From IMG/VR virus record IMGVR_UViG_2671180680_000013: DNA of 8,443 nucleotides; one strand, given 5' to 3'. Position 1 is the stretch's first letter; the number at the start of each line of letters is the position of its first letter. The stretch is from a virus. Lineage: Duplodnaviria; Heunggongvirae; Uroviricota; Caudoviricetes. Below, piece after piece: positions 3,068 to 8,390 of this stretch. Below the pieces are notes generated by a model. That model did not search any database. It was given only the letters and a program-made list of their open reading frames with translations, and was not told where the DNA came from. Both the position numbers and the translations under genes were made by a program.

Positions 3068-3811
3068 TCACTTATTCTGCGTGTGCAGCATATAGTTCAC
3101 ATCCACGCCGGGGCCGAGCTTAAAGGAATTAGTGATCGGGTTGTAATGTAGCCCGGTTATATGTCGCTCTTTTAAACTGGTCTGATCCACCCAGCCAAGC
3201 AGCTCTGCCGGTTTAATAAACTTCTTCACATCATGCGTACCTTTGGGCACCATGCGCAAAATATATTCCGCGCCAACCACCGCCATCAGCCATGACTTGC
3301 CGTTGCGGTTAAGCGTCGAGAAAAAGACATCGCCGCCTGGTTTCACCAGTTGCGCACAGGCTCTGACCACTGACTGCGGATCGGGTACGTGCTCCAGCAT
3401 CTCCATGCAGGTCACCACATCATACTGCCCGGCATGTTTTGCCGCGTGCTCTTCCACGGTTNNNNNNNNNNNNNNNNNNNNNNNNNNNNNNNNNNNNNNN
3501 NNNNNNNNNNNNNNNNNNNNNNNNNNNNNNNNNNNNNNNNNNNNNNNNNNNNNNNNNNNNNNNNNNNNNNNNNNNNNNNNNNNNNNNNNNNNNNNNNNNN
3601 NNNNNNNNNNNNNNNNNNNNNNNNNNNNNNNNNNNNNNNNNNNNNNNNNNNNNNNNNNNNNNNNNNNNNNNNNNNNNNNNNNNNNNNNNNNNNNNNNNNN
3701 NNNNNNNNNNNNNNNNNNNNNNNNNNCCCACCAGCGGGAGGCGACGGCTTCAAATTTAGCGATCTCTTCGTGGTCTACGTTATGGTTTTCCGGCGATTTT
3801 TCGGCATTCAT
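3068..3811 (-). CDS. ubiG: bifunctional 3-demethylubiquinone-9 3-O-methyltransferase / 2-polyprenyl-6-hydroxyphenol methylase (ubiquinone biosynthesis)
   Basis: Minus-strand ORF with N-terminus [28 protein letters not shown] and C-terminus ...[19 protein letters not shown]...[20 protein letters not shown]...NYMLHTQNK, matching UbiG including the post-I class I SAM-methyltransferase motifs. Start ATG is the complement of 3809-3811, with GGAG 11 nt upstream on the coding strand. The ORF-track start at 3859 adds 16 residues with no ribosome-binding site and is not used. Stop TGA is the complement of 3068-3070. The SAM-binding glycine-rich motif lies inside mask 3462-3726. Confidence 0.92.
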
Positions 3812-3957: not shown

Positions 3958-6645
3958 ATGAGCGACCTTGCGAGAGAAATTACACCGGTCAACATTGAGG
4001 AAGAGCTGAAGAGCTCCTATCTGGATTATGCGATGTCGGTCATTGTTGGCCGTGCGCTGCCGGATGTCCGAGATGGCCTGAAGCCGGTACACCGTCGCGT
4101 ACTTTACGCCATGAACGTACTAGGCAATGACTGGAACAAAGCCTATAAAAAATCTGCCCGTGTCGTTGGTGACGTAATCGGTAAATACCATCCCCATGGT
4201 GACTTGGCGGTTTATGGCACGATCGTCCGTATGGCGCAGCCATTCTCGCTGCGTTACATGCTGGTAGACGGTCAGGGTAACTTCGGTTCCATCGACGGCG
4301 ACTCTGCGGCGGCAATGCGTTATACGGAAATCCGTCTGGCGAAAATTGCCCATGAACTGATGGCCGATCTCGAAAAAGAGACGGTCGATTTCGTTGATAA
4401 CTATGACGGCACGGAAAAAATTCCGGACGTCATGCCAACCAAAATTCCTAACCTGCTGGTGAACGGTTCTTCCGGTATCGCCGTAGGTATGGCAACCAAC
4501 ATCCCGCCGCACAACCTGACGGAAGTCATCAACGGTTGTCTGGCGTATATCGATGATGAAGACATCAGCATTGAAGGGCTGATGGAACACATCCCGGGGC
4601 CGGACTTCCCGACGGCGGCAATCATTAACGGTCGTCGCGGTATTGAAGAAGCTTACCGTACCGGTCGTGGCAAGGTGTACATCCGCGCCCGTGCTGAAGT
4701 GGAAGTCGACGCCAAAACCGGGCGTGAAACCATTATCGTCCACGAAATTCCGTATCAGGTAAACAAAGCGCGCCTGATCGAGAAGATTGCGGAACTGGTA
4801 AAAGAAAAACGCGTGGAAGGCATCAGCGCGCTGCGTGACGAGTCTGACAAAGACGGTATGCGCATCGTGATTGAAGTTAAACGCGATGCGGTCGGTGAAG
4901 TTGTGCTCAACAACCTCTACTCCCAGACCCAGTTGCAGGTTTCTTTCGGTATCAACATGGTGGCATTGCACCATGGTCAGCCGAAGATCATGAACCTGAA
5001 AGATATCATCGCGGCGTTTGTTCGTCACCGCCGTGAAGTGGTGACCCGTCGTACTATTTTCGAACTGCGTAAAGCTCGCGATCGTGCTCATATCCTTGAA
5101 GCACTAGCCGTGGCGCTGGCGAACATCGACCCGATCATCGAACTGATCCGTCATGCGCCGACGCCTGCAGAAGCGAAAACTGCGCTGGTGGCTAATCCGT
5201 GGCAGCTGGGCAACGTTGCCGCGATGCTGGAACGTGCTGGCGACGATGCTGCGCGTCCGGAATGGCTGGAGCCAGAGTTCGGCGTGCGTGATGGTCTGTA
5301 CTACCTGACCGAACAGCAAGCTCAGGCGATTCTGGATCTGCGTTTGCAGAAACTGACCGGCCTTGAGCACGAAAAACTGCTCGACGAATACAAAGAGCTG
5401 CTGGATCAGATCGCGGAACTGTTGCGTATTCTTGGTAGCGCCGATCGTCTGATGGAAGTGATCCGTGAAGAGCTGGAGCTGGTTCGTGAACAGTTCGGTG
5501 ACAAACGTCGTACTGAAATCACCGCCAACAGCGCAGACATCAACCTGGAAGATCTGATNNNNNNNNNNNNNNNNNNNNNNNNNNNNNNNNNNNNNNNNNN
5601 NNNNNNNNNNNNNNNNNNNNNNNNNNNNNNNNNNNNNNNNNNNNNNNNNNNNNNNNNNNNNNNNNNNNNNNNNNNNNNNNNNNNNNNNNNNNNNNNNNNN
5701 NNNNNNNNNNNNNNNNNNNNNNNNNNNNNNNNNNNNNNNNNNNNNNNNNNNNNNNNNNNNNNNNNNNNNNNNNNNNNNNNNNNNNNNNNNNNNNNNNNNN
5801 NNNNNNNNNNNNNNNNNNNNNNNNNNNNNNNNNNNNNNNNNNNNNNNNNNNNNNNNNNNNNNNNNNNNNNNNTCGTCAACCTGCTGCCGCTGGAGCAGGA
5901 CGAACGTATCACCGCGATCCTGCCAGTGACCGAGTTTGAAGAAGGCGTGAAAGTCTTCATGGCGACCGCTAACGGTACTGTGAAGAAAACCGTCCTCACC
6001 GAATTCAACCGTCTGCGTACCGCCGGTAAAGTGGCGATCAAACTGGTTGAAGGCGATGAGCTGATCGGCGTTGACCTGACCAGCGGCGAAGACGAAGTAA
6101 TGCTGTTCTCCGCCGAAGGTAAAGTGGTGCGCTTTAAAGAGTCTTCTGTCCGTGCGATGGGCTGCAACACCACCGGTGTTCGCGGTATTCGCTTAGGTGA
6201 AGGCGATAAAGTCGTCTCTCTGATCGTGCCTCGTGGCGATGGCGCAATCCTCACCGCAACGCAAAACGGTTACGGTAAACGTACCGCAGTGGCGGAATAC
6301 CCAACCAAGTCGCGTGCGACGAAAGGGGTTATCTCCATCAAGGTTACCGAACGTAACGGTTTAGTGGTTGGCGCGGTACAGGTAGATGACTGCGACCAGA
6401 TCATGATGATCACCGATGCCGGTACGCTGGTACGTACTCGCGTTTCAGAAATCAGCATCGTGGGCCGTAACACCCAGGGCGTGATCCTCATCCGTACTGC
6501 GGAAGATGAAAACGTAGTGGGTCTGCAACGTGTTGCTGAACCGGTTGACGAGGAAGATCTCGATACCATCGACGGCAGTGCCGCGGAAGGGGACGATGAA
6601 ATCGCTCCGGAAGTGGACGTTGACGACGAGCCAGAAGAAGAATAA
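3958..6645 (+). CDS. gyrA: DNA gyrase subunit A, carrying QRDR substitutions S83L and D87G
   Basis: The ORF translates to [53 protein letters not shown]... with catalytic-region sequence ...[19 protein letters not shown]... and the acidic tail ...[11 protein letters not shown], matching E. coli GyrA as I recall it. Codon 83 (4204-4206) is TTG (Leu) and codon 87 (4216-4218) is GGC (Gly). The GyrA-box region is hidden in mask 5559-5872. ORF length is 895 codons against 875 for K-12; the excess falls inside the mask. Confidence 0.97.
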
Positions 6646-6793: not shown

Positions 6794-8382
6794 ATGAGTG
6801 GTGAAAAAAAGCGAAAGGCTGGCGGTTCTATGGTCTTGTAGGTTTTGGCGCAATAGTACTGCTTTCCGCTGGTGTCTGGGCGTTGCAATATGCTGGCAGT
6901 GGGCCAGAAAAAACGTTGTCGCCGCTGGTGGTGCACAACAATCTGCAAATCGATCTCAATGAGCCGGACCTCTTTCTCGACAGCGACTCTCTGAGCCAGC
7001 TTCCCAAAGATCTCCTCACCATTCCGTTTCTCCACGATGTTCTGAGTGAAGATTTCGTTTTCTATTATCAGAATCATGCCGATCGTCTGGGCATTGAAGG
7101 CAGCATTCGTCGCATTGTCTATGAACACGATCTCACGCTGAAAGATAAACTCTTTTCGTCACTCTTAGATCAGCCCGCGCAGGCTGCGCTATGGCACGAT
7201 AAACAAGGCCATCTTTCACATTACATGGTGCTGATCCAGCGCAGTGGTTTAAGCAAACTGCTGGAGCCATTGTTGTTTGCCGCTACCAGCGACAGCCAGT
7301 TAAGCAAAACGGAAATCAGTAGCATCAAGATAAATAGTGAAACTATTCCTGTTTATCAGTTGCGCTATAACGGCAATAACGCCCTGATGTTCGCGACTTA
7401 TCAGGACAAGATGCTGGTGTTTTCCAGCACGGATATGTTGTTTAAAGATGATCAGCAGGATACCGAAGCCACGGCGATCGCAGGTGATTTGTTGAGCGGC
7501 AAAAAACGCTGGCAAGCAAGCTTTGGCCTGGAAGAGCGTGCTGCTGAAAAAACGCCAGTACGCCAGCGCATCGTGGTCAGCGCCAGGTTGCTGGGTTTTG
7601 GCTACCAGCGGTTAATGCCTTCTTTTGCTGGCGTACGCTTCGAAATGGGTAACGACGGCTGGCACAGTTTTGTGGCGTTAAATGATGAATCCGCCAGCGT
7701 AGATACCAGTTTCGATTTTACGCCGGTCTGGAACAGTATGCCTGCCGGGGCCAGCTTCTGTGTGGTGGTGCCGTATTCACACGGTATTGCCGAAGAGATG
7801 CTTTCGCACATCAGCCAGGAAAACGACAAGCTGAATGGGGCGTTAGACGGTGCCGCGGGGCTGTGCTGGTATGAAGACTCAAAATTGCAAACCCCGCTGT
7901 TTGTCGGTCAGTTTGATGGCACTGCCGAACAGGCGCAATTGCCAGGGAAACTGTTTACGCAAAATATTGGTGCGCACGAAAGCAAAGCGCCAGAAGGTGT
8001 TTTGCCGATAAGCCAGACTCAGCAGGGCGAAGCGCAAATCTGGCGTCGCGAAGTGAGTTCCCGATACGGTCAGTATCCGAAAGCGCAGGCGGCGCAACCC
8101 GATCAATTAATGTCGGATTATTTTTTCCGCGTGTCGCTGGCGATGCAAAACAAAACGCTGCTTTTCTCCCTCGATGACACGCTGGTTAATAACGCCCTGC
8201 AAACACTGAATAAAAACCGCCCGGCAATGGTGGATGTAATACCCACTGATGGCATCGTTCCGCTCTATATCAATTCACAAGGCGTGGCGAAACTGCTGCG
8301 TAACGAAACGTTGACCAGTCTGCCGAAGAATCTCGAACCGGTTTTTTATAACGCCGCACAGGTGATGCTGCCAACTTACTGA
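6794..8382 (+). CDS. yfaA: DUF2138-family exported protein (YfaA-like); reading frame interrupted at an A7 tract (6804-6810) immediately after the start codon
   Basis: ATG at 6794 with AAGGA (6781-6785) 8 nt upstream opens frame +2 (MSGEKKRKAGGSMVL, stop at 6839-6841). From 6805 frame +1 is open to TGA at 8380-8382 and begins KKAKGWRFYGLVGFGAIVLLSAGVWALQYAGSG, a classic signal-peptide or signal-anchor n/h/c pattern. There is no ATG or GTG in frame +1 before TTG at 6883 (the ORF-track start). An eighth A in the tract would join the ATG to the long ORF, giving about 529 aa. Gene name is from the recalled position downstream of gyrA. Confidence 0.6.
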
Positions 8383-8390
8383 TTTAGTGT

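Follow-up and report, generated by a model that had tools for sequence, protein, structure and literature searches.

The window analysed here, that is, the whole stretch of DNA of 8,443 nucleotides, follows the gene order of the E. coli locus, namely yfaL, ubiG (on the opposite strand), gyrA and yfaA, and is bounded at its two ends by pieces of insertion sequences. The features are located as follows, in coordinates of the window:

1-62, reverse orientation: terminal piece of an IS2 copy; E. coli genomes contain multiple copies of the identical 62-mer
854-1109, 1887-2139, 2186-2447, 3462-3726 and 5559-5872: five runs of N, each between 253 and 314 bases long, together making up 16% of the window
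3958..6645, plus strand: coding sequence of gyrA (DNA gyrase subunit A), with ATG at 3958 and the stop codon ending at 6645
4156..4275, plus strand: quinolone-resistance-determining region (QRDR), codons 67-106, with codon positions read directly
4204..4206, plus strand: codon 83 of gyrA, TTG, Leu (S83L); TCG in K-12
4216..4218, plus strand: codon 87 of gyrA, GGC, Gly (D87G); GAC in K-12
4321..4323, plus strand: codon of the catalytic Tyr122, TAT, intact, as read from the sequence and its translation
6049..6051, plus strand: codon 678 of gyrA, GAA, Glu (D678E), in the C-terminal domain, from the comparison with K-12
8361-8443: left end of IS1, 83 bases starting GGTGATGCTGCCAACTTACTG, multi-copy and overlapping IS1 annotations in E. 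coli

The gene at 3958..6645 had been named gyrA in the first-pass annotation, and this identification is borne out by annotated E. coli genes, by synteny, by protein profiles and by solved structures. The open reading frame matches the gyrA annotated in complete E. coli genomes in 5426 cases out of 5426, with a top identity of 99.0%, and its chromosomal placement between ubiG and yfaA is that found in E. coli. In the comparison with TIGR01063, the equivalog profile of GyrA, residues 1-533 score 869.2 bits over profile positions 1-492, and the last 256 residues of the open reading frame score 270.6 bits over positions 579-799; with the middle of the protein masked by N, the whole-protein cut-off of 877 is exceeded only by the sum of both fragments. 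When the Gram-negative ParC profile is applied to the same two fragments, it gives 524 and 25 bits, which is far below TIGR01063. In addition, the product contains the breakage-reunion domain (PF00521, 540.6 bits) and the C-terminal beta-pinwheel repeats (PF03989, 180 bits in four stretches), and the solved structures of E. coli GyrA (6rks, 3nuh and 1ab4) are matched from residue 1 of the protein. Tyr122, whose codon is intact, is the catalytic tyrosine of GyrA. The run of N at 5559-5872 (314 bases) masks approximately codons 534-619, that is, about 85 codons, and the position of the GyrA-box (QRRGGKG, approximately residues 560-566 in the C-terminal domain) falls within this run.

The runs of N also affect the apparent lengths of the genes. 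Between two of them only an island of 46 bases of real sequence is left (2140-2185), and compared with the stretches of K-12 that they replace, the runs are longer by 6, 5, 17, 21 and 60 bases. Two runs break the frame of yfaL, which is therefore split across two frames, and in gyrA the run has 314 bases compared with 254 in E. coli, with the frame kept and the open reading frame extended to 895 codons compared with 875. Since all five runs are too long and two of them are out of frame in yfaL, their lengths are almost certainly not faithful, and the lengths of the open reading frames of yfaL, ubiG and gyrA are almost certainly false. Read literally, the run in gyrA would correspond to an in-frame insertion of 20 codons at or close to the GyrA-box in the C-terminal domain, besides the changes in the QRDR; this is considered highly improbable, and a real insertion of 60 bases in gyrA was rejected on the same grounds of excess length and broken frame.

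At the left end of the window, the 62-mer of IS2 is found in multiple copies on both chromosomes and plasmids of E. coli, where it directly adjoins an annotated IS2 transposase gene, and IS2 interrupts yfaL near nucleotide 903 of that gene. At the right end, the terminal stretch, which from its first letters we take to be the left end of IS1, interrupts yfaA 121 bases ahead of its stop codon. Not one of 5426 complete genomes of E. coli contains the junction between yfaA and IS1; the only full-length matches in them are unrelated IS1 ends with 86-91% identity. Within yfaA itself (ATG at 6794), one base is deleted at 6810/6811 after a run of seven A residues, relative to both K-12 and FDAARGOS_1248, and the frame is shifted at about codon 6; the gene may truly be decayed here, or the deletion may be a sequencing error at the homopolymer. 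The best identity over the whole window among complete E. coli genomes is 98.8%. As for the single genes, the fragment of yfaL (EhaC autotransporter) at 63-2940 is by far the more divergent, with 94.5-98% identity to E. coli references, compared with 99% for gyrA and 98.5% for yfaA.

Codons 83 and 87 of gyrA and their frequency in E. coli

The gyrA of E. coli K-12 MG1655, taken from NC_000913.3, was used as the susceptible reference for the codons. The first-pass annotation had placed the QRDR at residues 67-106 (nucleotides 4156-4275) and had read codon 83 as TTG and codon 87 as GGC; the edge codons agree with these limits, codon 67 being GCC (Ala) at 4156-4158 and codon 106 being CAG (Gln) at 4273-4275, and the bases at 4204-4206 and 4216-4218 confirm the two readings. 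MG1655 has TCG and GAC at the two codons, by which both changes are established: each consists of a single transition in the middle base of the codon, C>T at 4205 for S83L and A>G at 4217 for D87G. Codons 67, 81, 82, 84 and 106 are of the wild type in the window. The gene belongs to the class of QRDR double-mutant alleles, with Leu83 and Gly87 in place of Ser and Asp.

Over the 2374 visible bases of gyrA, there are 30 differences from K-12, of which 27 are silent and 3 are replacements; in the 789 visible codons the replacements are S83L, D87G and D678E only. The protein with D678E that is otherwise of the wild type is found on at least 1000 public contigs, and D678E is a common natural polymorphism. 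According to our own arithmetic, the odds that three random replacements would cover codons 83 and 87 are 6/(789*788), or about 1e-5; that two of the three should fall exactly on these codons is therefore more than chance.

The frequency of the alleles was counted in 5426 complete E. coli genomes with 30-base queries, by megablast with an exact 28-base word. Every such 28-base word spans codons 83, 85 and 87, so that exact alleles only are counted, and alleles with GTC and with GTT at codon 85 are counted separately:

Wild type, S83/D87: 639 genomes with GTC and 2014 with GTT, 2653 in total
S83L/D87N: 331 genomes with GTC and 1371 with GTT, 1702 in total
S83L/D87G: 1 genome with GTC and 5 with GTT, 6 in total

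The other approximately 1065 genomes carry different alleles or different silent variants, which were not broken down. TCG/GAC, and not TTG/GGC, is thus the wild type and the commonest state in E. coli; because TCG/GAC predominates in these counts, S83L/D87G is a derived allele, and the wild-type codons are those of Ser and Asp. The statement of the first-pass annotation that D87N is a commoner partner of S83L in E. coli than D87G is supported by 1702 genomes against 6, and S83L is only rarely paired with D87G in this species. The window's own 30-mer of the QRDR is present in 5 complete E. coli genomes. When 185,579 species-representative genomes were searched, no exact match was found either for a 29-mer of the QRDR with S83L/D87G or for an 87-mer with four lineage-specific silent variants. 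Separately, it was observed that a gyrA with S83L/D87N is present on one plasmid-labelled record in the collection of complete E. coli genomes; this replicon has probably been given the wrong label or been assembled incorrectly.

Quinolone resistance and the explanations of the double change

Biochemical work on E. coli gyrase has led to the conclusion that a water-metal ion (Mg2+) bridge sets the position of the quinolone, with residues 83 and 87 as the anchors of this bridge. On this basis, the two point mutations on helix 4 of GyrA, Ser83 to Leu and Asp87 to Gly, would have been selected for the following effect: Leu and Gly would be unable to supply the anchors of the water-Mg2+ bridge in the cleavage complex, and gyrase lacking both anchors would be poisoned only inefficiently by nalidixic acid or fluoroquinolones. 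From the genotype S83L + D87G alone, resistance to nalidixic acid and lowered susceptibility to ciprofloxacin are predicted, and high-level resistance to ciprofloxacin would require an altered topoisomerase IV besides the changes in gyrA. It has already been said in the first-pass annotation that this mechanism is not novel, which is judged to be right: S83L + D87G is an already known resistance allele with an already known mechanism.

The contribution of each step has been measured in isogenic strains of MG1655 (PMC2714960), for which the following ciprofloxacin MICs were reported:

Wild type: 0.016 ug/ml
gyrA S83L: 0.38 ug/ml
gyrA S83L + D87N (the partner being D87N, not D87G): 0.38 ug/ml
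gyrA S83L + parC S80I: 1 ug/ml
gyrA S83L + D87N + parC S80I (again D87N, not D87G): 32 ug/ml

For S. sonnei, MICs of 0.25 for S83L alone and of 8 for the triple mutant S83L/D87G/parC S80I have been reported (PMC6811581), and the order of mutations inferred for Shigella is S83L, then parC S80I, then D87G/N (PMC6811581, PMC5989582). Among 6715 S. sonnei genomes, 61 were S83L + D87G double mutants and D87G was present in 30.8%, and genotype 3.6.1.1 was the only one with triple mutants, which have parC S80I in addition (PMC8113504). The claim that a change at residue 87 is the standard second step towards ciprofloxacin resistance needs correcting in this light: by itself it brings no gain (0.38 to 0.38 in isogenic MG1655 with D87N), and parC S80I is needed. 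Since the residue-87 change brings no gain without it, parC S80I is likely to be present elsewhere in the source genome. The occurrence of S83L + D87G in fluoroquinolone-resistant Shigella, which had been described as well documented, is indeed so for S. sonnei, S. flexneri and S. dysenteriae 1 (PMC6811581, PMC5989582, PMC8113504).

It is very probable that the gyrA of the window is the chromosomal gyrA of an Escherichia/Shigella strain in which S83L and D87G have been selected, and in which the poisoning of gyrase by quinolones is reduced. The many lineage-specific silent differences of the allele from K-12, together with the neutral-looking D678E, could also be brought under the explanation that S83L and D87G are neutral lineage polymorphisms of gyrA, unrelated to drug selection. 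However, TCG/GAC is carried by 2653 of the 5426 E. coli genomes, and almost every other genome that was counted has a known resistance allele; moreover, two of the three replacements sit on the two bridge-anchor residues, for which the chance was given above (about 1e-5), and both S83L and D87G are established resistance mutations, so that neutrality is hardly conceivable here. It is likewise very unlikely that either codon change, or both, arose from faulty sequencing or assembly of a draft contig. The window does resemble a short draft contig, and the one-base deletion of yfaA beside its A7 run is possibly a homopolymer error, but the changes at codons 83 and 87 are substitutions outside homopolymers and coincide precisely with the two hot spots, the identical 30-mer recurs in 5 complete E. 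coli genomes, and a matching full-length GyrA protein is present on 514 public contigs.

More weight is given to the explanation that the allele is real but belongs to a gyrA-only double mutant, perhaps selected in the laboratory, with a wild-type parC, whose susceptibility to ciprofloxacin would be modestly lowered without clinical resistance; even this is considered improbable. In isogenic E. coli, S83L with a residue-87 change and without a parC change gave an MIC of 0.38 ug/ml (PMC2714960), and such double mutants do exist, as in the 61 of 6715 S. sonnei genomes (PMC8113504). In Shigella, however, the residue-87 change normally comes after parC S80I (PMC6811581, PMC5989582), and these 61 doubles stand against a D87G that is carried by 30.8% of the S. 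sonnei genomes (PMC8113504). Under the preferred explanation, namely a gyrA selected by quinolones in an Escherichia/Shigella strain, the source may reasonably be regarded as a clinically relevant resistant isolate, as was first proposed; what the window alone establishes is the gyrA genotype, not high-level resistance.

Source lineage and resemblance to known resistant clones

The ends in IS2 and IS1 suggest that the window is the whole of a short-read contig from an IS-rich, Shigella-like genome. Because this short contig ends in copies of IS2 and IS1 and contains a decayed yfaL and yfaA, the source is most likely a Shigella, for which S. sonnei is the best guess. In order to compare the protein with public records, the full GyrA was rebuilt as that of K-12 with S83L, D87G and D678E, the hidden codons being assumed equal to those of K-12. 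The rebuilt GyrA has an exact public-protein match on 514 contigs, which is named from Shigella sonnei, has S. flexneri as its UniRef representative, and is also labelled MULTISPECIES Enterobacteriaceae. The GyrA with S83L/D87G and without D678E occurs on 171 contigs, with E. coli as its named source. Ciprofloxacin-resistant Shigella, and S. sonnei genotype 3.6.1.1 above all, is characterised by S83L/D87G as its gyrA allele.

The allele is useful for surveillance and annotation, as it flags the source genome as quinolone-non-susceptible; if parC S80I is present too, as is likely, this would point to resistance to ciprofloxacin, and perhaps to a Shigella clone that is spreading worldwide. The gyrA allele of the window brings nothing new on the mechanism, on the gene family or on its evolution; it is clinically relevant and scientifically ordinary.

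Among the known systems, the fluoroquinolone-resistant E. coli with S83L + D87N (clinical UTI, LM625/LM693) has changes at the same residues, with the same mechanism and the same stepwise path through parC S80I, but residue 87 is Asn there, whereas it is Gly in the window. In fluoroquinolone-resistant S. dysenteriae type 1, in which gyrA carries S83L/D87G or S83L/D87N, the QRDR profile is as in the window. The fluoroquinolone-resistant S. flexneri clone, characterised by gyrA H211Y, S83L and D87G/N together with parC S80I (PMC5989582), has S83L and D87G in common with the window; as the source of the window this H211Y clone was rejected, codon 211 of the window gyrA being His, not Tyr. Ciprofloxacin-resistant S. 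sonnei (Central Asia III, or genotype 3.6.1.1, 'CipR') is defined by GyrA S83L + D87G and ParC S80I (PMC8113504), of which the window covers the GyrA pair only, since parC and the lineage SNVs lie outside it. With this S. sonnei clone the window shares gyrA S83L + D87G; it is likewise IS-rich with decayed genes, and its rebuilt GyrA is named by NCBI from S. sonnei.
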